Sequence record: OR062943.1
Length of the DNA: 64,000 bases
Strand: one strand, 5' to 3'
DNA from: Escherichia phage 241Ecol014PP
This document shows positions 16,589 to 48,946 of the stretch, in pieces. The position numbers and the translations under genes are program-made. The notes under the pieces were generated by a model, which did no database searches, was not told where the DNA came from, and saw nothing but the letters and a program-made list of their open reading frames with translations. Position 1 is the first letter of the stretch. Each line of letters opens with the position of its first letter.

Positions 16589-17062
16589 CTAGTCTACCTG
16601 AACCCAACCGCCTGCTACTTTTTTAAACATTCTTTGGTTATCGCTACCTCGGAACGGTTTCTTGGTTGGTAAATCTTTTACATACTTACCGTCAATGATG
16701 ATATCAGCCAGTTTAAGAACATCACTAGAGATATGGTCAAATGTGAACCCAGTATATACAAGAATAGTTTTCTTGTCACCAAATTTTTCCTTAATTTTCT
16801 CCATCAGGCTAATAATATCTGGCTCATTATAGTATGCTAAGGGTTCTCCACCCAGCAGAGAGATACCGCACACAGACGGGTTATCTAAATCTGACAAGAT
16901 TTTTTGCAAGTCTTCTTCAGTGAACTCTCTCCCCTTATCTTTTGACCAAAATGCCTGATTAAAGCAACCAGGGCAAGCGTGTGGGCACCCAGATACCCAC
17001 AAGGCAGTTCTAATACCGGGCCCTTCGGTGTAAGATATTTCTGTGTATCCGACAATGTTCAT
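16589..17062 (-). CDS. nrdG: anaerobic ribonucleotide reductase activating protein (radical SAM)
   Basis: CPHACPGCFN radical-SAM cysteine cluster; adjacent to nrdD. Confidence 0.85.
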   Translation of the reverse strand: MNIVGYTEISYTEGPGIRTALWVSGCPHACPGCFNQAFWSKDKGREFTEEDLQKILSDLDNPSVCGISLLGGEPLAYYNEPDIISLMEKIKEKFGDKKTILVYTGFTFDHISSDVLKLADIIIDGKYVKDLPTKKPFRGSDNQRMFKKVAGGWVQVD

Positions 17063-17238
17063 AGATACTCCGCATCACATTTAGGGCAATGCCAAATAAA
17101 ATCATCAAGTGCCTTGCACCAACGAAGATTGCAACGACAACCACACTTGCAAATTTTATAAATACCTTTAGACATACTGTACCTCCTAGCTCACTGTGTG
17201 TCAATAATATGCCACATCCTTGTGGCTTTTGTCAAGTA

Positions 17239-18231
17239 TCAGCAACTACAACTTCCATGGTGCTTAACTCGCTCGATAACTTCCGCTTGCTTACCTTTAT
17301 TGTAAGGACGGGAGTTAGGACTGGAAAGGTATCCGGACACACGTCGAATTACACTGATCGTTCCCTCTTCATGGTTTCCACACTCTGGGCATACAAAGCC
17401 TTTAGCTGTTGCACTGAACTCACCAGAGAAACCACACTTGAGACATTTATCCACAGGTTGGTTAATACCAAAATACATAATGTGTTTATATCCGAAATCA
17501 ACAAGAGCTTCCAAAGCATCTAAGTTGTTTTTCAGATTTGGTGTCTCTATGTACCCAATGTTGCCACCAGAAGAGATCATGGCAAAACCTTCTTCATACT
17601 TCCACTTATCAAAAGGCGAACTATTGATCCATACTGGCTGATGGAAACTGTTGGTGAGGTATTCATGCTCATGCTTCAACACCTCCGGATATTCACGATC
17701 CAGGCAGGTTGCAGCTTTATAGCATAAACTCTCAGAAGGGGTGCCGTACAAGCTAAATGCTAGTCTACTTTCCCTCTTGTATCGCTCACAAGCATCTCTC
17801 ATGTGCTGAAGGATTCCAAGAGCTAAAGCCTTGTCACCCTCTCTGCCCAAAATCTGACAGGTTTCATACACACCAATATACCCAATACTGATGGAAGCGT
17901 ACCCGTCATAGAAGAGTTTATCAATACTCTCTTCAGGATCCAAGCGAGCAAGAGCTCCTTCACACCACATGATAGGGTTCTGCCCTGCCTTGGTGCCTTT
18001 CAGACGGTTAACCCTTACAAGGTGAGCTTCATATGCCAAATCCAAATACTCGTCAAGAACGGCAAAGAAATCAACACCTTCCGTCTTAGCTTTTGCCGCA
18101 ATCATTGGCAGGTTAAGGCTAACAACACCCAAGTTGAATCTGCCAAGGTATTTCTCCTCACCTGTTACAGGGTCGCTATATTTCGATAAGAAACTTCTAC
18201 ACATTATGTTCAGGGTGGTTCGCAAGTCCAC
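17239..18231 (-). CDS. nrdD: anaerobic ribonucleoside-triphosphate reductase, C-terminal exon (glycyl radical domain)
   Basis: RRVSGYL glycyl-radical-type motif; CxxC...CxxC Zn ribbon; 5' boundary approximate. Confidence 0.8.
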   Translation of the reverse strand: MDLRTTLNIMCRSFLSKYSDPVTGEEKYLGRFNLGVVSLNLPMIAAKAKTEGVDFFAVLDEYLDLAYEAHLVRVNRLKGTKAGQNPIMWCEGALARLDPEESIDKLFYDGYASISIGYIGVYETCQILGREGDKALALGILQHMRDACERYKRESRLAFSLYGTPSESLCYKAATCLDREYPEVLKHEHEYLTNSFHQPVWINSSPFDKWKYEEGFAMISSGGNIGYIETPNLKNNLDALEALVDFGYKHIMYFGINQPVDKCLKCGFSGEFSATAKGFVCPECGNHEEGTISVIRRVSGYLSSPNSRPYNKGKQAEVIERVKHHGSCSC

Positions 18232-18954
18232 CCCCGCACCTTTAAGTGCTGCTGCATGTTCCCATGCAGATCAGACTATATCTTCACACTTAGTGTGTCT
18301 ACCATTTCGAGTGTCATCGGCTTACACCCTACACCGCTACATTCATCACGGTTAGTCGTTAGGCATTTCGTAACAGAACTCGTAATCATAGTTATTAGGC
18401 GCACCACGTTTCAGGATAGCAGATATTCTTTTTCTATCTATTCCTAAAACATCAGCACAACATCTCAGACTTTTAAAGTGGAAAACCTCACCAGTTAATT
18501 TGTTGGTGGCTTTCACACCGTGGCATCTTGTGTAAAAAGCATAACAGTTGTTGTTGTATCCTTCTTGCGTATTGTCTGGGCAAGCTCCCCACTCAAGGTT
18601 GTATACACTGTTATCTTTCCTGTTGTCCCCTTTGTGCTTAACATAGGGTAAATTGTCTGGATTTGGTAAGAACGCTTCAGCAACAAGTCTGTGAACCCTT
18701 AGGCAAACAGTCTTTTTGTTCTTGCGTATCCTAACAAGACGGTAACCTGTGTTTATCTCTTCCCACGAATGAATAATTCTTTCATTTTCGTAGCGGGTGC
18801 AATAAACATTGCCCATCTCGTCAATTTCATAACCTTCAAAATCACGAATTTGTTTTCTCATTTCAGGACTCCTCTTGGTCAGGAGTTCTGTTACGTTTAG
18901 CACGGGATTGTCCGTTCTGGAGTTTCCCCGTTTAGGTAGATTTTACATGAGCAG
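18232..18954 (-). mobile_element. putative group I intron in nrdD carrying an HNH homing endonuclease ORF (boundaries approximate)
   Basis: On the nrdD sense strand: P-like AAACGGGGAAAC (rc of 18923-18934), Q-like AAUCCCGU (rc of 18902-18909), R-like AACGACUAACC (rc of 18350-18360), S-like GAUAUAGUCUG (rc of 18272-18282). Confidence 0.6.
18352..18861 (-). CDS. HNH homing endonuclease (intron-encoded)
   Basis: HRLVAEAFLPNP...KHKGDNRKDNSVYNLEW; start trimmed to ATG preceded by AGGAG (ORF track extends to 18903 from a GTG). Confidence 0.7.
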   Translation of the reverse strand: MRKQIRDFEGYEIDEMGNVYCTRYENERIIHSWEEINTGYRLVRIRKNKKTVCLRVHRLVAEAFLPNPDNLPYVKHKGDNRKDNSVYNLEWGACPDNTQEGYNNNCYAFYTRCHGVKATNKLTGEVFHFKSLRCCADVLGIDRKRISAILKRGAPNNYDYEFCYEMPND

Positions 18955-19245
18955 TTATAGTTTACCCATGCTCGTTACTTTGCCATCTGTCGAGCCTGTC
19001 ACTTTTCTATTTAGTGGTACAGATACGAAGTCAGGATAGATACGTTCTGCACAGCATTCCAGAGCTAATCGTTTCAAATCATAGTTAGGATCCTCAGGGT
19101 TCATGTTGACACCCTCTTCTAGGAAGAACAGCACTTTAGGGAACACAGGTGTGATACGTTCTTCACCAAGACCCATTTTGTGGACTTTCAAGTAGTTTTT
19201 GGTAATCATTCTACCAAAGACCGAGGTATCCAGTCCTAAACTCAA
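18955..19245 (-). CDS. nrdD: anaerobic ribonucleotide reductase, middle exon (ORF-defined limits)
   Basis: NrdD-like FPKV...PNYDL...LECCAERIYPD; flanked by two intron-like segments. Confidence 0.55.
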   Translation of the reverse strand: MSLGLDTSVFGRMITKNYLKVHKMGLGEERITPVFPKVLFFLEEGVNMNPEDPNYDLKRLALECCAERIYPDFVSVPLNRKVTGSTDGKVTSMGKL

Positions 19246-19517
19246 TGTGATAAAAGGGGTTTGCGGTCCCCACCCTTATGTTTCCACAAGGCCAGACTAT
19301 CTCTTGCCTGAAATCACACCGTGTGATTCTTAATCAGACCTCTGCGTTTCGGAATCTTCCATAATCCCTACACCAAAAGGTTAGTCGTTACAACCGCCTC
19401 ACTCCTTGTGAAGCTAGTCACGGGATTGGCATAGCTTTCGCCTTAGCGTTCCCCGTTAGCCAGCGATCAGCTGACCCCTCGTACTGAGGTTAGCAGAGTT
19501 TTAAAACGGCCAGTTTG
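19246..19517 (-). ncRNA. putative ORF-less group I intron in nrdD (boundaries approximate)
   Basis: Sense-strand P-like AACGGGGAAC (rc 19438-19447), Q-like AAUCCCGU (rc 19410-19417), R-like AACGACUAACC (rc 19369-19379), S-like AGAUAGUCUGG (rc 19292-19306); no ORF. Confidence 0.55.
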
Positions 19518-20381
19518 TTAACCGTTTACCGAGGTTAGTGTGTTGATCTGATAAAGCAACGTCTGCATGCTGTCAAACACGTCTTTATCTGTCATTTGCA
19601 TTGCAACAGTCTCAGCATCTGGCAACCAATGTTCCTGGCAAAATTTAAGGTTCTTCTCATAAGTCGCCTCAGCATACTGTGCCAGATAATGATCAATATG
19701 GCTCATAGTCTGACCCCCATATTGAGCACTAGCTACTGCACTAGAGATTTGGCTAAGGATTGTTGTTGCAACCCCTATTGACTTCGGCTTGCTGACATGG
19801 GCGTTACCAATGTTGAATCCGTTTTCCAACATATCTGGATAATTTACCAAACAACAGTTTGTTAACGGACTGATTAAGTAGTCAAGATCATGCACATGGA
19901 TGAAGCCTTTATTGTGCTCTTCTGAAACACGGTCTGGCAGGATCTGTGTTGATGCAAGGTGTTTGCTAAGAATACCTGCAAGCAGGTCGCGATGAGTGTG
20001 TACATGATTAGTAGGCTTATTTGCGTTTTCTTTTGTAAATTCATCACAAGTTCGATCCAAGAAGCCACTAATATCTGCAAGCAGTTTTCCACCTGCCTCT
20101 CTGTTATTATCTCTTGTCTGTCTATACTGGATGTATTCTCTGGCTGCACATTTTAAACCCATATCCATAAGAGCATCTTCAACAAGGATATGGATATTTT
20201 TTACAGAGATCGTGCACTGGTCGGTTGGCAGATTGTTAGCAACAACTTCATTAACCGCACAAGCGATCCGGTAAGCTTCTTCTTCAGTATGCCCAGACTC
20301 AAGTAAGGCGGACTCTGCCGCCTTGATCACCTTAATTCCGTTATAGAACTCTTCTCTACCGTCCCGTTTTACAACTTTCAC
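19518..20381 (-). CDS. nrdD: anaerobic ribonucleoside-triphosphate reductase, N-terminal exon
   Basis: N-terminal ATP-cone-like start MKVVKRDGREE; 3' boundary approximate. Confidence 0.8.
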   Translation of the reverse strand: MKVVKRDGREEFYNGIKVIKAAESALLESGHTEEEAYRIACAVNEVVANNLPTDQCTISVKNIHILVEDALMDMGLKCAAREYIQYRQTRDNNREAGGKLLADISGFLDRTCDEFTKENANKPTNHVHTHRDLLAGILSKHLASTQILPDRVSEEHNKGFIHVHDLDYLISPLTNCCLVNYPDMLENGFNIGNAHVSKPKSIGVATTILSQISSAVASAQYGGQTMSHIDHYLAQYAEATYEKNLKFCQEHWLPDAETVAMQMTDKDVFDSMQTLLYQINTLTSVNG

Positions 20382-20656
20382 TTTTTCTCTCCAAAACCAT
20401 TCTTAACAAAAGAGATGAAATCGTCGGCACCGCCTATATGGACACTGTCAAGATCGCTTTCTAAGAAGATCTGCGGCAACGTTCGGGGGACGATTGGACT
20501 ACACTTCTCAATAAGCTCTTCTTTTGTGTAGCCCTCGCCAAGTGTCTTATATACAAAAGGCAGACCTTTGCTGATTGCAAATTCTTTTGCTCTGACACAA
20601 TGTGGGCAGTTATCCTTACCGTAAATGATGATGAAAAAAGATTTTTCGCAGCTCAT
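20378..20656 (-). CDS. glutaredoxin-like protein
   Basis: CPHC active site (YGKDNCPHCVRAKEF). Confidence 0.75.
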   Translation of the reverse strand: MSCEKSFFIIIYGKDNCPHCVRAKEFAISKGLPFVYKTLGEGYTKEELIEKCSPIVPRTLPQIFLESDLDSVHIGGADDFISFVKNGFGEKK

Positions 20657-20659
20657 ATA

Positions 20660-21808
20660 TTAAAACTCCCAAATTTCTTCTTCAGCGTCGTTAACAGTTG
20701 TGTTGACGCGGTAGTCAGTGTTCGACATTTCTTGGTTCGCCGTCTGTTGCAATGAAGGTTTCATCCACACCTGCATAAACGGTAGCGGGTCCTTTGTTGG
20801 CGGCACAAAGTCTTTGTCGATGTCGTAGTAATCATAAATCGGTGAGCAGTTATAGTCAACCCATTCTTTAAGCAACGGTGAGTTAAGACCTATAATCGCT
20901 CTTCCTTCGCTGAAAATATAGTCACTCCAACCGTACTCTTTGGTTCGTACTTCATCAAGAATCTCTTTTAACTCCCCTTTTATCTCCAGGAAGCTTTTCT
21001 CCCATGCGGGATCGTTAAGCAAGATATCAATGATGGCAAAATCACCTTTCGAATGTAGCATTTCGTCAAGCATGATTTTTTGAACAAGCTGCGCCACCTG
21101 AACAAAAATACCCTGTTCAGCTACTGCGAAAGTGCATGCAAAACTTGCAATAAACTCAATACTTTCTAGAGCTAAAAGTGCAAAAAGCGCTCTAAGAATG
21201 CATTTCCGCACAATATCTTCTTCAACACTAGAAGGATCCAGGCGGTATTTTGCACCAATAACCTCAAGCTCTTGCATGTATTTGACAATAACGCCGGATC
21301 TGCTCAGAACGTTTTGGTTTTCCTGAATCTCTTCTATAATCTCACGGGCATTGGGGAGGCATTGTCTAACAATCTCTGAGTAAGTTAGTGCGTGAAGAAC
21401 TTCAATCTCTGACTGTTTCATCAATAGAGTGAAAAGCTCACTATTAGTGATGAATGGTGAAAAGAGGCAGATGATCGATCTTGCCGCAACGCTATCAGCC
21501 TCCCATTGCCACATCAAGGTCTGCACCATCACGTCATAAGTTGACTTTGAGCATGTTACAAAATCTGAAATAGATTGCGACAAATCCACTTCATCCTCTG
21601 CCCAATCTTGCTCTTTTTGTTTTTTGTATAGTTCAAACAGTTGTGGATATTTTTTGTTGATAGAGTCGTACATACCCATTTGCTGTCCCAGAAACAGCGG
21701 ATAGTCACCAGTTTTATGAGCGGTGTTCTCAGCATTAAATACAGCCATTATTCTACCTCTAAAATGGGGCCGAAGCCCCTTTAAAATTATAGTGCACAGC
21801 TTTCGCAA
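20660..21808 (-). CDS. nrdB: ribonucleotide reductase class Ia beta subunit
   Basis: Length and position next to nrdA; ferritin-like helical blocks. Confidence 0.85.
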   Translation of the reverse strand: MRKLCTIILKGLRPHFRGRIMAVFNAENTAHKTGDYPLFLGQQMGMYDSINKKYPQLFELYKKQKEQDWAEDEVDLSQSISDFVTCSKSTYDVMVQTLMWQWEADSVAARSIICLFSPFITNSELFTLLMKQSEIEVLHALTYSEIVRQCLPNAREIIEEIQENQNVLSRSGVIVKYMQELEVIGAKYRLDPSSVEEDIVRKCILRALFALLALESIEFIASFACTFAVAEQGIFVQVAQLVQKIMLDEMLHSKGDFAIIDILLNDPAWEKSFLEIKGELKEILDEVRTKEYGWSDYIFSEGRAIIGLNSPLLKEWVDYNCSPIYDYYDIDKDFVPPTKDPLPFMQVWMKPSLQQTANQEMSNTDYRVNTTVNDAEEEIWEF

Positions 21809-31464: not shown

Positions 31465-32600
31465 ATTGCTCCAACATTTCTAAGAACGTTAACAAGTTTT
31501 GTTTGATCATTGAATGTTCGCTTCATATACAAACAGTCAAAAATTATACTCATCCATTGGCCTACGGAAATTCTGCGATCAATACCATTGAAGTCAGTAT
31601 ACTTAACAACACCTTTCGGGAACCACTTCTTGTACTGATCAATAATAGCCACCCACATCTCCTTTGGAGTGCTGCACTGAGACAGTAGGTAGAATGCTGA
31701 GGCATCCCCGAACTTACCCTTACCGATAAGTCCTTGATACGGCTTGATGTTGTCAGCAGAGTCACCACACAGCATTTGGTATCCGAAGAACAGCATTCCG
31801 TAACCACCAACCTCTCCATTAGGCTTCATGAAGATGTTCCCCATACCGTTATCGATCAGCATAGGGGTTTCTCTTACAAAATCTCCCTTATCGTTTCGCA
31901 TGGGATCGAACACAAGCCCCGGTAGTGTTCTTTGGTCCTTATCAATAGAGATAATAAACTTGTTGAACTTACCTGTTTTTTGGTAGTGGTTCCAACCTTC
32001 AAATTGTTGGATAGCTAACCAGTCGTCAGCCTCGATACCGTTGATCACTTGAGCATTATACTGCTTTTGGAGATACTGTCTTGCATCTCCAAGCAGCAGT
32101 GGTCGAAGAGTATTGTTACGGTTGGCTTTATATCTTTCCGGCATGGGAAGATCTAGTCTGAAATTACCTGTGCCTCCAAGTACCCCCACGCACCGATCTT
32201 CCGGAATACCGAGATAATTAAGGACTGCATTAGCTTTACACTTAATTGTGTGCAAGCAGTTCTCTACAGGATCAGGGGTTTGGATATCCAAGACATCGAA
32301 ATCTTCGCGTGTCCACGGAATAAACTCCTTGCCAGCCTTTTTACATGCAGCTTCACGGTTGGTATTCTCAGCTTTTAACCAACCACCAACGGTGTTCTTC
32401 TGCCGCCCCCAGAACTCTGTTCGTGTTTTAAACATCTTCTTACGTCCGGAGGCTTTGTGTGTTACCTCAATTGTCCTTTTTTCACAACTTGCTGCAGCTT
32501 GGTATGCAACCTGATCGAAGTCATAATAAACTATAGCGTCAGGTTCAAGAAGATCAGCCAGACAATCTATGGACTCAATAAGTGGATATTCTCTACTCAA
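31461..32600 (-). CDS. RNase H / flap endonuclease (5'-3' exonuclease family)
   Basis: IISIDKD and GDSADNIKPYQGLIGKGKFG resemble recalled T4 RNase H blocks. Confidence 0.55.
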   Translation of the reverse strand: MSREYPLIESIDCLADLLEPDAIVYYDFDQVAYQAAASCEKRTIEVTHKASGRKKMFKTRTEFWGRQKNTVGGWLKAENTNREAACKKAGKEFIPWTREDFDVLDIQTPDPVENCLHTIKCKANAVLNYLGIPEDRCVGVLGGTGNFRLDLPMPERYKANRNNTLRPLLLGDARQYLQKQYNAQVINGIEADDWLAIQQFEGWNHYQKTGKFNKFIISIDKDQRTLPGLVFDPMRNDKGDFVRETPMLIDNGMGNIFMKPNGEVGGYGMLFFGYQMLCGDSADNIKPYQGLIGKGKFGDASAFYLLSQCSTPKEMWVAIIDQYKKWFPKGVVKYTDFNGIDRRISVGQWMSIIFDCLYMKRTFNDQTKLVNVLRNVGAI

Positions 32601-44125: not shown

Positions 44126-44200
44126 GCCCTGTTAGCTTAGTGGATAAAGCAGCGGCCTTCTAAGCCGTTGACACTGGTTCGAGTCCAGTACGGGGTGCCA
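44126..44200 (+). tRNA. tRNA-Arg (anticodon TCT), CCA encoded
   Basis: Manual cloverleaf: acceptor GCCCTGT/ACGGGGT (two G-U), D GCTT/AAGC, anticodon loop CTTCTAA. Confidence 0.75.
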
Positions 44201-44330
44201 AGTTCTTTTTAATGTAGCTTACTTTAGCAGAGTAAATCTTCGGCAAGTGGCGGTAACCACTTTACCGATACCTCATAGTTAGTGGTGAGAACACTAGCTA
44301 TTTTAAAAAGAATTTAAATATTAGTATTTA

Positions 44331-44418
44331 GGTGAGTTAATTCCGTAGGGGTAGCGGGGCAGACTGTAAATCTGTTATCATTGCGATTCGGGTGGTTCGA
44401 CTCCATCACTCACCACCA
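44331..44418 (+). tRNA. tRNA-Tyr (anticodon GTA), class II, CCA encoded
   Basis: Acceptor GGTGAGT/ACTCACC; anticodon arm GCAGA-CTGTAAA-TCTGT as in recalled E. coli tRNA-Tyr. Confidence 0.8.
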
Positions 44419-44532
44419 AATTTATATTTTTAAATGCATAAATCATACAGATAATGGCATTGATATTTATCGTCGTTTATACTAGTCACTAACTGCTCGA
44501 AAATCAGTGTCATTATCAGTATTGTTTATAAA

Positions 44533-44623
44533 AGAGGGTAGGGAGCAATGGTGCTCAAGCGGTCTTGAAAACCGTCCCGTTGAGGATGACTCGATGATGG
44601 TTCGATTCCATTATCCTCTGCCA
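44533..44623 (+). tRNA. tRNA-Ser (anticodon TGA), class II, CCA encoded
   Basis: Acceptor AGAGGGT/ATCCTCT; anticodon loop CTTGAAA; long variable arm. Confidence 0.7.
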
Positions 44624-44721
44624 TATTGTTGACCTTGTAATTAAGCGAAAGCCGGAAGCAGAACCGGATTATCAAATGTTACAGTCGTCATCGCCGACTA
44701 GCAACATGGTCAACATACTGA

Positions 44722-44820
44722 GCTAGGTAAGCCCTTTGGCAAGGGCGAGGATTTTTAATCCTGAAAATAGACGAGGTAGTCGTTGAATACATAGGTGGTT
44801 CGATTCCACCGCCTAGCACC
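44722..44820 (+). tRNA. atypical ~97-nt tRNA-like element; anticodon unassigned (possibly TTT)
   Basis: Perfect acceptor GCTAGGT/GCCTAGC and T-arm GGTGG-TTCGATT-CCACC, but 65 nt between acceptor and T-arm. Confidence 0.4.
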
Positions 44821-44825
44821 TTTTT

Positions 44826-44901
44826 GCTGATGTAGCACAATTGGTAGTGCAATTGATTTGTAATCAATAGGTTGCAGGTTCAAGTCCTGCCATCAGCACC
44901 A
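44826..44901 (+). tRNA. tRNA-Thr (anticodon TGT), CCA encoded
   Basis: Full canonical 76-nt cloverleaf; anticodon loop TTTGTAA. Confidence 0.85.
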
Positions 44902-44902
44902 T

Positions 44903-44977
44903 GGCCCTGTAGCTGGAAGGTTCAAGCAAGCGACTCATAATCGCCAGACGGTGGTTCAATTCCACCCAGGGCCACCA
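44903..44977 (+). tRNA. tRNA-Met or tRNA-Ile2 (anticodon CAT), elongator type, CCA encoded
   Basis: Acceptor GGCCCTG/CAGGGCC paired at 1-72; anticodon loop CTCATAA. Confidence 0.8.
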
Positions 44978-46232: not shown

Positions 46233-46516
46233 GAGTTGCTGCACTGTTTATTGTGTGCTTGTTATTGTGTGGGTGTGCAACCAGCGTTGAGAGAGAATAC
46301 AAGATTGACCCTCCAGATGTAGGAAGGTTGATTGTTAAACCCCCGGAAGGTGCCATGAAACCACCTGCTAAAGCTATACCTTTAAAGAAAGGTGCGCCAG
46401 ATGCGGTGAATTCTGGCATTATGAGGGATAATAATCTGTCTTGTAGCAATGATAGAGCTAAATTGATCATTTTGCAAGACTATATTAGAACACTGTTTCC
46501 AAAGGAGAGAGGTTAA
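46229..46516 (+). CDS. o-spanin-like outer-membrane lipoprotein (proline-rich)
   Basis: Signal peptide with LLCGC lipobox-like Cys; KPPEGAMKPPAKAIP. Confidence 0.55.
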   Translation: MRVAALFIVCLLLCGCATSVEREYKIDPPDVGRLIVKPPEGAMKPPAKAIPLKKGAPDAVNSGIMRDNNLSCSNDRAKLIILQDYIRTLFPKERG

Positions 46517-46944
46517 TGTCTAAGATTTACGGACCGTGTTCTGAAAAGCAGAAGATGATCCTAGAAAACGATGCAGATATTTTGGTAATCGGCGGTGCCG
46601 CAGGGTCTGGCAAGTCGTTCCTCTTGCAGTTGATGCCACTTAAAATTATTGATGACCCCCACAGCTCTGTGGTTATGTTCCGAAGAACAACCCCACAGTT
46701 GGAAGGTGAGGGTGGACTATGGCCTAAAGCAGTAGCTATTTATAGTGATCTGCCTGAAAACATTAAGCCAAAGTTCAGAGAGAAGGATCATAAGTTCATT
46801 TTCCCACGATTTGATCCGAGAACTGGCAAGTGGGATAGAAGCAAAAAGGGAGCTGTTGTAAAATACTGCCACATGGAGTATGTACAAGATAAGCTTAACC
46901 ATCAAGGGCTTGAGTACACCATGGTTTGCTTCGATGAGGGTTAA
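46516..46944 (+). CDS. terL: terminase large subunit, exon 1 (ATPase: Walker A and B)
   Basis: Walker A GGAAGSGKS; ends right after Walker B VCFDEG. Confidence 0.8.
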   Translation: MSKIYGPCSEKQKMILENDADILVIGGAAGSGKSFLLQLMPLKIIDDPHSSVVMFRRTTPQLEGEGGLWPKAVAIYSDLPENIKPKFREKDHKFIFPRFDPRTGKWDRSKKGAVVKYCHMEYVQDKLNHQGLEYTMVCFDEG

Positions 46945-47857
46945 TTTGTAGCTCTCGTAAAACCTCCCTAATTGCGGGGAAATCTTTATTATTGACACCA
47001 CCAACCTGTCATGGTAACATGATAGAGGCTTCGAAGAGAGATCGAAGGTATGGTAACAGTGTGTTAATTTAGATAATCCGCAGCGAAGCGTCCGAGAGGA
47101 TGAACGTTCAACGACTAGTCGAAAGACGTAGAATCAAGCGATTCGAAACGGGAGGGTGAATGTGTAATACTAAAAAATGTATGGATTGCCAAAGAGTTCT
47201 ACCTATTGATGATTTCTTTTTATCATCTAAGAGCAAGGATGGATACTCAGGTACATGCAAGGAATGCTATATGTACTACAGGAAGGGTGGATCTCGTAAA
47301 AACAAAAATATGGTTAAGAGAGATGACGCAGCATTGTTTATTCAAGACTTGCTGGAGAAAGGTGAACTTTTTGAATGCAAATCTTGTCATGAAAGTATGC
47401 TAGCTGATAGTTTTTACACAAAACGTGACTATGGTAAAGTATATCTGGTTACGAACAGGTGTAAGATGTGTGAAAAGTTTTATCAGATTGAGAAGAAATT
47501 TCACATAACAAAAGATGAATACTATCGTCTACTCTCAGATCAAGATCATAAGTGTGCCATTTGTAGAATATCCCTTGATGAGTATAGGACGCAAGGGTAC
47601 AGAGATTTCTTTTGTGTTGATCATGACCATAAAACTGGTGCTGTAAGAGGGTTGCTTTGTGATAAATGCAACAGAGCTTTAGGTTTCTTCCAAGAAGATG
47701 AGGAAACTATTCTTAGAGCGGCAGAGTATTTACACATTCATAAGATATAGTCTGGTCTGCATGGAGACATGCAGCTGCCTGAAAATGGCGGGGCAAGACT
47801 AGCGACCTTGCCCGAACATAAACGACACAATTCGAATGGGAGCAGATAGACTATCTG
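46945..47857 (+). mobile_element. putative group I intron in terL carrying an Endo VII-family endonuclease ORF (boundaries approximate)
   Basis: P AATTGCGGGGAAA (46970-46982), Q AATCCGCAGC (47066-47075), R GTTCAACGACTAGTC (47106-47120); internal TTGACA-17-TAACAT (46992-47020). Confidence 0.65.
47160..47750 (+). CDS. Endonuclease VII-family homing endonuclease (intron ORF)
   Basis: CVDHDHKTGAVRGLLCDKCNRALG; N-terminal Cys-rich zinc-finger-like repeats. Confidence 0.7.
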   Translation: MCNTKKCMDCQRVLPIDDFFLSSKSKDGYSGTCKECYMYYRKGGSRKNKNMVKRDDAALFIQDLLEKGELFECKSCHESMLADSFYTKRDYGKVYLVTNRCKMCEKFYQIEKKFHITKDEYYRLLSDQDHKCAICRISLDEYRTQGYRDFFCVDHDHKTGAVRGLLCDKCNRALGFFQEDEETILRAAEYLHIHKI

Positions 47858-48946
47858 ATGTCTCGTCTGCGATCTCAGTCAAAGTATCCATCAAGAATGG
47901 TTATCAGCTGTAACCCCGATTCAGAACACATGCTTGCCAAACTGGTTAGATGGTGGTTGGACGATGAAGGGTATCCAGATCCGGAGAAATGCGGTAAGAA
48001 AAGATATTTTATCCGACGCGACGGTGAATTTATCTGGGGAGACTCTAAAGAAGAGTTGATAGAGAAATACACCACGGTTAACGGACTGGGTGTGGAGATC
48101 AAGCCGAGACCGTTGTCATTCTCGTTTATAGGCGCAACAATATTCGATAATCCTGTCTGCTTAAGAGACAACCCAGAATACCTTGCTTTCCTTGAAGGTC
48201 TGCCGGAACTGGAAAAAGCTCAGCTTCTTCATGGTAACTGGTTTGCAAAGCCTGAGGGTGCAAACTATTTTCAAAGATCTTTCCTTCGTGATGCCGATAG
48301 AGTACCCCTTGGATCAGTATCTTGTAGGGCATGGGATAAGGCAGGAACCGAGAGAACTTCCGGTAATAAATTTCCTGACTTTACCGCCAGTGTTAAGGTA
48401 AGTAAAGATAGCGACGGCTTTTATTACCTGTCCGGTGATTATTGTCCTGAGAACGTGGATGACGGGAGGTATTCCACAGGTCTGGAAGGTAAGTTCTGTA
48501 AAAAGGCTGGTGAACGAGATGTGATCATCAGGAAACAGGCGCAGTTTGATGGTGACGATTGTATAATCGTATTCTCTGTGGACCCAGGTCAGGCAGGTAA
48601 GAGTGAGTTCTTAACCTCCTCCAGATCCTTACTCGCCGAAGGGTTTAGGGTTGAAGAAGACCCAATGCCTTCCAACAAATCTAAACTGACAAGATTCTCA
48701 CCTTTTGCCAATCTTGCCCAACAAGGAATGGTGAGGATTGTAAAATCCAGTTTCCATCCTGATACTCTGGAAGCATTTCTGACTGAACTTGAAAAATTCA
48801 ACGGGGAAAGATCAACATTTAACAGAAAAGACGACTGGGCCGACTGTGTAGCTTCTGCGATTAATTTCCTGGAGAAAGAGGAGGTAGCACTTCCTTGTGT
48901 GATTCCATCAATCTCATCACCTTCTATGTTCAAGCGTTTTATCTAA
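47858..48946 (+). CDS. terL: terminase large subunit, exon 2 (nuclease domain)
   Basis: VISCNP coupling-motif-like block and C-terminal DDWADCVA; 5' boundary approximate. Confidence 0.8.
   Translation: MSRLRSQSKYPSRMVISCNPDSEHMLAKLVRWWLDDEGYPDPEKCGKKRYFIRRDGEFIWGDSKEELIEKYTTVNGLGVEIKPRPLSFSFIGATIFDNPVCLRDNPEYLAFLEGLPELEKAQLLHGNWFAKPEGANYFQRSFLRDADRVPLGSVSCRAWDKAGTERTSGNKFPDFTASVKVSKDSDGFYYLSGDYCPENVDDGRYSTGLEGKFCKKAGERDVIIRKQAQFDGDDCIIVFSVDPGQAGKSEFLTSSRSLLAEGFRVEEDPMPSNKSKLTRFSPFANLAQQGMVRIVKSSFHPDTLEAFLTELEKFNGERSTFNRKDDWADCVASAINFLEKEEVALPCVIPSISSPSMFKRFI

Follow-up and report, generated by a model that had tools for sequence, protein, structure and literature searches.

The nrdD gene of Escherichia phage 241Ecol014PP (record OR062943.1), which encodes a class III ribonucleotide reductase (RNR), is broken twice in its coding sequence. 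This raises the question of what the two insertions are and how one protein is obtained across them. We analyzed a stretch of 64,000 nucleotides of this genome (hereafter the window, where position 1 is its first letter). Its source is an rV5-like (Vequintavirus) myovirus of Escherichia coli, and the 3.2-kb nrdD region is 94-96% identical to that of many Vequintavirus genomes, including phita32, navn, JEP1, phiWec191 and the BASEL phages. A reading of the window made from the sequence alone had proposed two group I introns within nrdD. This proposal is supported by the exact borders of the insertions, the 707-amino-acid frame restored by their removal, the matches to the Rfam model RF00028 and the covarying helices from P3 to P9. 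Hence, nrdD of the window is very probably expressed from one pre-mRNA with two independent self-splicing sunY-like group I introns of class IA2, the second of which carries a gene for an HNH homing endonuclease.

Borders of the insertions and the restored reading frame

A mechanical list of open reading frames (ORFs) divides nrdD into three NrdD-like blocks of the minus strand (20381-19518, 19245-18955, and 18231-17239), with an ORF of 183 amino acids between the second and the third. The blocks match in turn the positions 1-154, 163-263, and 263-562 of the Pfam NRDD profile, and there is an ATP-cone in the first and a glycyl-radical domain in the last. The sequence-only reading was thus right in recognizing three NrdD-coding blocks, and in regarding the middle one, which covers 163-263 of the profile, as NrdD sequence.

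The borders of the introns could be set to the base with the intron-less alleles of sister phages, which are natural deletion controls. The phage phiWec191 lacks exactly the positions 19520-19264 and reads GTC AAC GGG^CAA ACC CCA (VNG^QTPF, where ^ marks the junction). The phage AlexBoehm lacks exactly 18963-18202 and reads AGC ATG GGT^TGC CGG AGT (SMG^CRSF), i.e., AGCATGGGT^TGCCGG. The last intron base is a G in both cases (G19264 and G18202), and exon 3 begins with TGT (Cys) at 18201, 30 nt after the GTG (18231) with which the mechanical ORF starts. The gaps had been described as about 270 nt without an ORF and about 720 nt with an HNH ORF; their contents were correctly recognized, but the actual sizes are 257 and 762 nt.

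The first site separates G287 from Q288 within NGQTPF, a conserved motif (G190^Q191 in T4). The second is between G387 and C388, directly before the active-site Cys. C388 aligns with C290 of T4 in the motif PMGCRSF, which we take, from the literature on the T4 enzyme, to be the catalytic finger-loop cysteine. Once joined, the exons (861 + 300 + 963 nt) encode a NrdD of 707 amino acids that matches the NCBIfam equivalog NF006732 in a single stretch, from residue 2 to 702, with 819.9 bits (cut-off 657), and that passes the cut-off of TIGR02487 too. An alignment of the exons to an uninterrupted NrdD had been suggested as a check. With the sequence of the T4 NrdD crystal structure (1H78), this alignment is gap-free at both junctions; it places MGCRSF over T4 C290, and the RVSGY and CxxC...CxxC motifs are present.

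Some of these borders are already reflected in public annotations. The BASEL authors annotated intron boundaries comparatively (PMC8594841), and their GenBank record for AlexBoehm has the coding sequence (CDS) of nrdD joined around intron 1, with an arithmetic that fits an intron of 257 nt (2168 - 257 = 1911 = 3 x 637). In most GenBank records of rV5-like phages, nrdD is given as two or three separate CDSs and the endonuclease as hypothetical. We also observed that several records, among them those of AlexBoehm and phita32, have nrdD begin 213 nt beyond the GTG, at an internal ATG. The ATP-cone occupies residues 1-91 of the GTG-initiated ORF (Pfam, E = 4.4e-14), and is lost from these annotations because of the choice of the internal ATG.

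Two probable ribozymes and a putative endonuclease

The sequence-only reading had found P, Q, R, and S elements in the correct order in both insertions, and we could place all of them. The P...Q pair (ACGGGGAA...AATCCCGT) lies at 19456-19420 and 18931-18902, its sole two matches in 64 kb, for 0 expected. R (AACGACTAACC) is exact at 19389-19379 and 18360-18350, and S (AAGAnATAGTCTG) is found at 19305-19293 and 18284-18272. At the Rfam gathering thresholds, the window gave only tRNAs and no intron match. A covariance-model scan, also suggested as a check, was run in E-value mode on 3.7 kb (17000-20700). RF00028 matched both insertions on the sense (minus) strand, with 35.3 bits (E = 1.5e-6) for intron 2 and 28.4 bits (E = 1.7e-4) for intron 1, both below the gathering score of 50 bits, which is a curation threshold and not a defining property of group I introns. 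For comparison, the T4 nrdD intron, whose ORF is outside the ribozyme core, scores 105.3 bits, while three introns with an ORF in P6 score 35-39 bits. Hence, it is the splitting of the core by an ORF of 500 nt, and not a decayed ribozyme, that explains the low score of intron 2.

On the sense strand, intron 2 is organized as P1, UAAAA, P3, UAA, P4, a short P5, P6, P7, P7.1, P7.2, P8, P9, P9.1, P9.2, and a tail (UGAACAUAAUG, whose last base is G). P3 is formed by UCUACC...GGUAGA, P4 by ACGGGG/UCCCGU, and P7 by GACUA/UAGUC; P6 has 13 bp (CGUAACAGAACUC/GAGUUCUGUUACG) and closes the loop that holds the ORF. We gave RNAalifold, with no prior structure, four ORF-deleted introns: intron 2 of the window, the T4 intron, and those of VEcB and F100 (see below). 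It recovers P1, the long-range P3, P4, P5, P6, P7.1, P7.2, P8, P9, and P9.2. Double compensatory changes are present in 24 of 73 pairs, e.g., the series A-U, G·U, G-C, C-G in P3, and both P7.1 and P7.2 covary. The MAFFT alignment of the ORF-deleted introns has register slips in P6, P8, and the 3' tail, and we used RNAalifold's own structure. P7 is a pseudoknot, outside what RNAalifold can predict, and is uninformative on covariation because it is invariant.

Folded together with short flanks of the exons, intron 1 has a minimum free energy (MFE) structure (-95.1 kcal/mol, z = -4.5) that holds P1, the long-range P3 (CUCUGC/GCAGAG, 5' strand at 19498-19493), P4, P5, P6, P7.2, a long P8, and P9. 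A variant of this intron is found in rV5-type phages, in 28 records that include phita32, FV3, and FFH2. It is 87% identical to intron 1 over the first 141 nt, then divergent, and carries in P8 an HNH ORF of 177 amino acids that passes Pfam HNH_3 at 29.5 bits. Between the two forms we observed compensatory changes in five helices: P1, P3, the hairpin that we call B, P6, and P9. In P1, the pairing AAACGGU/GCCGUUU of the window (exon A, guide U) is CAACGGU/GCCGUUG in phita32 (exon C, guide G), and in P3 the pairing is CUCUCC/GGAGAG in phita32. Intron 1 is assigned to IA2 by architecture only, i.e., by P7.1/P7.2 and the junction motifs, as its overall identity to intron 2 is near the shuffled baseline (see next section).

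Intron 1 has, between P3 and P4, two hairpins that are both predicted de novo in the MFE fold: CCUC-AGUAC-GAGG at 19489-19477 and hairpin B, GUCAGC-UGAUC-GCUGGC, at 19475-19459. The latter covaries in phita32 (GUCGG/CCGGC) and in the IMG/VR contig L008. In contrast, intron 2, T4 sunY, and the intron of the window in the terminase gene TerL have no more than a short joiner, UAA or similar, at this place, and td-like introns, as well as the IMG/VR relatives with the P4-P5 module of intron 1, have an extra helix (P2) upstream of P3. When IMG/VR was scanned with patterns of intron 1, a single near-identical contig, of a Vequintavirus (L008), came up besides unrelated introns that share with intron 1 just the P4-P5 module. 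These relatives are too little diverse for a covariance model of the hairpins. To our knowledge, J3/4 has no named peripheral element, and literature searches on J3/4 insertions were unproductive. The hairpins may represent a peripheral architecture not described so far for an IA2 ribozyme. As a side observation, the uncultivated viral contigs L009, L012, and L016 of IMG/VR hold ORF-less group I introns with a conventional P2 and a P4-P5 module near-identical to that of intron 1.

The HNH ORF lies in the P6 loop of intron 2, i.e., between Q and R, where the sequence-only reading had placed it. Its start is most likely the ATG at 18861, downstream of the Shine-Dalgarno AAGAGGAG. The predicted protein matches I-HmuI (PDB 1U3E) almost from end to end (E = 1.3e-7, residues 3-166 of 169 on 4-172 of 174), the I-HmuI sequence in our alignment being reliable for residues 4-172, with a few terminal residues guessed. 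It also matches phrog_59, annotated as HNH endonuclease (E = 6e-32). Residues H76, N88, and N97, the catalytic His and the two Asn of the beta-beta-alpha-metal motif, correspond to H75, N87, and N96 of I-HmuI and are invariant among five relatives; the NUMOD-like domain of I-HmuI has a Pfam match below threshold only. From the PDB and PHROG matches, the putative enzyme is classed as I-HmuI-like and not as a member of Pfam HNH_3. The last codons of the ORF (EFCYEMPND and the stop) double as the 3' strand of P6 (18381-18369), J6/7, and the 5' strand of P7, with the stop UAA inside R. This explains why the C-terminus is kept even in a Vibrio homolog with 52% identity. The Shine-Dalgarno is covered by a hairpin that is kept, with changed bases, in the VEcB and F100 homologs, and that probably restrains translation of the endonuclease. 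In T4, the genes of all three intron endonucleases were described with such an arrangement (PMC2988022).

Taken together, these features suggest the following course of events. In each intron, P1 would form between the guide sequence and the last seven bases of the exon, and would place a U·G pair at the splice site. An exogenous guanosine in P7 would attack the 5' splice site, and the 3'-OH of the exon would then attack after the terminal intron G. The exons would be joined in frame to give the NrdD of 707 amino acids. With one in-frame stop right at the 5' splice site of intron 1 and another, a UAA, two codons into intron 2, ribosomes would be kept off the ribozyme. By analogy with the I-HmuI family, the HNH enzyme of intron 2 may nick or cut intron-less nrdD alleles in mixed infections, upon which recombinational repair would copy intron 2 and flanking exon into the cut allele (homing). 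The ORF-less intron 1 would spread only via recombination or hitch-hiking.

Table 1. Positions of the introns, their parts and neighboring genes in the window.
Feature	Position	Strand	Description
Intron 1	19264..19520	minus	group I, IA2-like, 257 nt, phase 0, without ORF; begins UAA (in-frame stop), terminal G
Intron 2	18202..18963	minus	group I, IA2, T4 sunY lineage, 762 nt, phase 0; ends ...AUAAUG
nrdD exon 1	19521..20381	minus	287 codons; ATP-cone and N-terminal NrdD core; ends ...LTSVNG
nrdD exon 2	18964..19263	minus	100 codons, QTPFITL...KVTSMG; Pfam NRDD profile 163-263
nrdD exon 3	17239..18201	minus	320 codons and stop; CRSFL start (active-site Cys); zinc ribbon; glycyl-radical RVSGY
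Intron 1 guide sequence GCCGUUU	19504..19510	minus	P1 with exon 19527-19521 (AAACGGU); U19521·G19510 at splice site
Intron 1 two extra hairpins	19459..19489	minus	between P3 5' strand and P4 (19456-19451); UAA on each side
Intron 1 P4-P5-P4'	19420..19456	minus	P and Q elements; GAAA loop on P5
Intron 1 3' core	19293..19389	minus	motif matches and MFE fold
Intron 1 R/P7 5' strand	19386-19382	minus	GACUA
Intron 1 P7.1	19381-19372	minus	
Intron 1 P7.2	19368-19351	minus	
Intron 1 P3'	19345-19340	minus	
Intron 1 P8	19339-19306	minus	
Intron 1 S/P7 3' strand	19299-19295	minus	
Intron 2 guide sequence GCUCAUG	18946..18952	minus	pairs with exon 18970-18964 (CAUGGGU); U·G at splice site
Hairpin over Shine-Dalgarno of HNH ORF	18868..18886	minus	ACUCCU/AGGAGU; MFE -12.4 kcal/mol, z = -3.3
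HNH homing-endonuclease ORF	18352..18861	minus	I-HmuI-like, 169 amino acids; ATG 18861 to TAA, in P6 loop
nrdA	24102-21787	minus	
nrdB	21808-20660	minus	
Glutaredoxin gene	20656-20378	minus	
nrdG	17062-16589	minus	NrdG activase; adjoins nrdD
TerL group I intron	46942-47824	plus	exons 46516-46941 and 47825-48946; junction CFDEG^TQFEW

The nrdD gene is part of a minus-strand nucleotide-metabolism operon with nrdA, nrdB, a glutaredoxin gene, and nrdG, and its GTG start (20381) overlaps the stop codon of the glutaredoxin gene. The TerL intron is of the sunY-like IA2 class (RF00028, 48.6 bits, E = 2.6e-9) and holds in P8 an Endonuclease VII-type ORF of 196 amino acids (47160-47750; PF02945, E = 2e-21). 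A fourth S-like motif (AAGATCTAGTCTG, 1 mismatch) at 32148-32160 on the plus strand was rejected as a chance match, being antisense in an uninterrupted ORF of 379 amino acids and without Rfam support. Elsewhere, the plus strand has a tRNA cluster at 44126-44975 with four or five genes, of which four are above the Rfam gathering score, and a sub-threshold tRNA-Sec-like match lies at 44533-44619.

Putative mobility, relatives, and rival readings

Within Vequintavirus, each of the two introns is an optional element. Of 121 related records, 80 have no insertion at site 1 (around 34% interrupted); of 122 records, 97 have none at site 2 (around 20% interrupted); and all four combinations of presence and absence exist among sister phages. 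Intron 1 occurs in its ORF-less form in 13 records and in the form with an ORF in 28. Full-length intron 2 is found in 28 records, including Justusliebigvirus.

In intron-minus alleles, exon mismatches to the window cluster beside the insertion sites. The first 50 nt of exon 3 have 11 mismatches in AlexBoehm, which lacks intron 2, for 1 each in phiWec191, phita32, and navn, the three alleles with intron 2 that were compared. The last 61 nt of exon 1 have 11 mismatches (9 + 2) in phiWec191, which lacks intron 1, whereas alleles that carry the same intron have none. Such clustering is what homing with co-conversion of flanking exon should leave behind (reviewed in PMC2988022), short of proof. 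As for exon 2, the window has 4 differences from AlexBoehm (no intron 2) and 16-18 from phiWec191, phita32, and navn (all with intron 2), which indicates a mosaic recombination history around the introns. We also observed that around 20 unannotated GenBank records of "Campylobacter phage" (MG0656xx, host C. jejuni) are 95-96% identical to the region and show the same intron polymorphisms; their host labels look doubtful.

Intron 2 has relatives in other phages. It matches the T4 nrdD (sunY) intron in blastn with 79% identity over 118 nt (E = 4e-17), and an intron of the Justusliebigvirus VEcB is 84% identical to the whole of it, with an HNH ORF that is 91% identical at the protein level. Introns at site 2 (SMG^CRS or YMG^CRS) are found in VEcB and also in Vibrio phage F100. 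On these comparisons, intron 2 belongs to the lineage of the T4 nrdD intron. The nrdD gene of F100 has, besides this sunY-type HNH intron at YMG^CRS, a second insertion at QFG^GLT with a NUMOD4/NUMOD1 ORF of 309 amino acids; the stretches concerned are 210-1370 and 1880-2690 of the F100 sequence analyzed.

One might have expected the two introns of the window to be recent duplicates, one element having moved within nrdD, and the sequence-only reading took their near-identical core motifs to suggest the duplication or homing of one lineage. Indeed, they share the junction motifs UAAAA-P3-UAA-ACGGGGAA, AAUCCCGUG, AACGACUAACC, and GUGUAGGG, and both are without a P2 upstream of P3. However, motifs of the P, Q, R, and S types are present in the T4 nrdD and TerL introns as well. 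They are common to the whole class of sunY-like IA2 phage introns, and are therefore no evidence of a recent common origin. After deletion of the ORFs, the identity to intron 2 is 0.91 for the VEcB intron, 0.81 for that of F100, 0.80 for T4 sunY, 0.73 for the TerL intron, and 0.62 for intron 1, where shuffled intron 1 gives a baseline of 0.584 +/- 0.027. Since this baseline is already at 0.58, global identity discriminates poorly, and we relied on the contrast between 0.62 and 0.73-0.91 together with the absence of a blastn match. Searches with intron 1 hit one place per record even where intron 2 is also present, and gave no match between the two introns at E <= 1e-5. Moreover, the guide sequences, P5, P6, P8, and 3' tails differ, and the presence of one intron is independent of that of the other. 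The suggested duplication is thus not supported, and we consider it very unlikely.

It is less likely again that the introns are decayed relics that do not splice, which would make nrdD effectively a pseudogene in this phage. The sub-threshold Rfam scores, the loss of the ORF from intron 1, and a gene that is not needed aerobically are what one would expect from relics. Yet none of the three exons is disrupted, their product keeps its catalytic Cys, zinc ribbon, and Gly-radical motif, and compensatory changes across phages maintain the helices of the ribozymes. The HNH ORF is intact too and 91% identical to an ORF in a different subfamily, and the splitting of the core by this ORF accounts for the Rfam score of intron 2, whose T4 homolog reaches 105 bits.

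The least probable reading, that of a gene in pieces whose insertions stay in the RNA and whose product is three assembling polypeptides, has a precedent in the RNR NrdA of Aeromonas phage Aeh1, split by mobE without splicing (PMC3653736, PMC7344957), and the blocks are annotated as separate CDSs in many GenBank records, but exons 2 and 3 lack both a start codon and a ribosome-binding site where they are joined (block 2 has its first in-frame start, a TTG, six codons in, and the GTG of block 3 is inside the intron), the intervening RNA folds as a complete covarying ribozyme, the borders follow the U·G and terminal-G rules, and a break at site 2 would sever the finger loop just ahead of the catalytic Cys. 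An intein was rejected because a UAA follows exon 1 directly and another comes two codons past exon 2. A group II intron was rejected as well, since 17000-20700 has no group II Rfam matches at E <= 10 and the ORF is an HNH nuclease of 169 amino acids.

Several points weigh against two functional self-splicing introns. Neither reaches the gathering score of RF00028. P10 of intron 1 is weak (2-3 bp), and the two-hairpin insertion between its P3 and P4 is unusual. The window copy of intron 2 has a P5 of only 3 bp. Its HNH ORF has a Lys at the position of the metal ligand Asp74 of I-HmuI (Cys or Asn in relatives) and is below the gathering score of Pfam HNH_3 (PF13392), with 19.8 bits for 24.8. 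Splicing itself and its chemistry, the endonuclease activity, and homing are deduced from the sequences. Finally, nrdD is dispensable in aerobic culture, and a splicing-defective copy could therefore persist in an isolate.

The introns among known systems

Group I introns in phage RNR genes have long been known, and nrdD was the most often split RNR gene in a survey of 2013 (PMC3653736). In the related Certrevirus CB7, splicing of HNH introns was shown by reverse transcription PCR in TerL, DNA polymerase, nrdA, and nrdB (PMC7344957). We found no description of nrdD introns of Vequintavirus in the literature, and the genome paper of rV5 describes terminase introns only, none in nrdD (PMC3606486). 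The introns of the window are a clear, ordinary case of sunY-like IA2 phage introns, a phenomenon known from T4, and they leave the current understanding of group I introns unchanged. Their exact splice sites allow nrdD to be annotated as a single joined CDS of 707 amino acids. They add a well-delimited example of phage group I introns that target the most conserved codons of nucleotide-metabolism genes, with one nrdD insertion site common to three unrelated phage groups. The sister phages with 0, 1, or 2 introns, together with the forms of intron 1 with and without an ORF, provide a ready-made system for the study of homing, co-conversion, hitch-hiking, and possible exon skipping. Regarding the latter, exon 2 counts exactly 100 codons between two introns of phase 0, so that skipping it would delete residues 288-387 in frame; exon skipping has been reported where a gene holds two group I introns (PMC10136302).

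The T4 nrdD intron, documented as mobile (PMC2988022), interrupts the same host gene. Intron 2 has the identical guide sequence GCUCAUG, nearly identical junction sequences, the same architecture from P3 to P9.2 without P2 and with P7.1/P7.2, and the 3' tail UGAACAnnnUG. In contrast to the phase 0 introns of the window, the T4 intron (1033 nt as recovered here) is inserted after nt 1 of codon Y180, in phase 1, and carries the GIY-YIG I-TevII in P9.1 where intron 2 has an HNH gene in P6. The site of intron 1 is 32 nt downstream of that of the T4 intron, and intron 2 is at the equivalent of T4 G289^C290. The sunY lineage is thus found at two nrdD sites (T4 E179/Y180 and G289^C290) with an identical 7-nt guide and with unrelated endonuclease genes in different loops. 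The 5' exon ends at the two sites, UAUGAGU and UAUGGGU, are one wobble-compatible base apart. This would be a natural case of guide-compatible ectopic transposition, independent of the endonuclease. The switch of site may have occurred via reverse splicing, or via illegitimate homing followed by selection for P1. That this, together with the J3/4 hairpins of intron 1, goes beyond the routine is possible but rather doubtful.

The VEcB and F100 introns share with intron 2 the ribozyme lineage and a homologous HNH ORF in P6 (91% and 52% identity, respectively) whose C-terminus overlaps the core. They come from phage subfamilies and hosts that differ from those of the window phage, and F100 has the QFG^GLT insertion in place of intron 1. 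The HNH ORF resembles I-HmuI, the nicking enzyme of the SPO1 DNA polymerase intron, in its end-to-end match, its His-Asn-Asn motif, and a C-terminal NUMOD-like DNA-binding part, but it is only 25% identical, has the Lys at the Asp74 position, and would have another target gene. The TerL intron of the window corresponds to those that were reported in TerL of rV5, a phage of the same group (Kropinski et al. 2013, PMC3606486); compared with the nrdD introns, it lies in another gene and has an Endonuclease VII-type ORF in P8. Finally, Staphylococcus phage Twort has in nrdE, as cited in PMC3653736, two group I introns that are spliced, one of them with an HNH endonuclease (Landthaler et al. 2002). 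As in nrdD of the window, both are inserted at highly conserved functional residues and one of the two carries an HNH gene. Unlike here, the gene encodes a class Ib NrdE and not a class III NrdD, the host and the phage family are others, and splicing was demonstrated in Twort, while in the window it is deduced from the evidence above.

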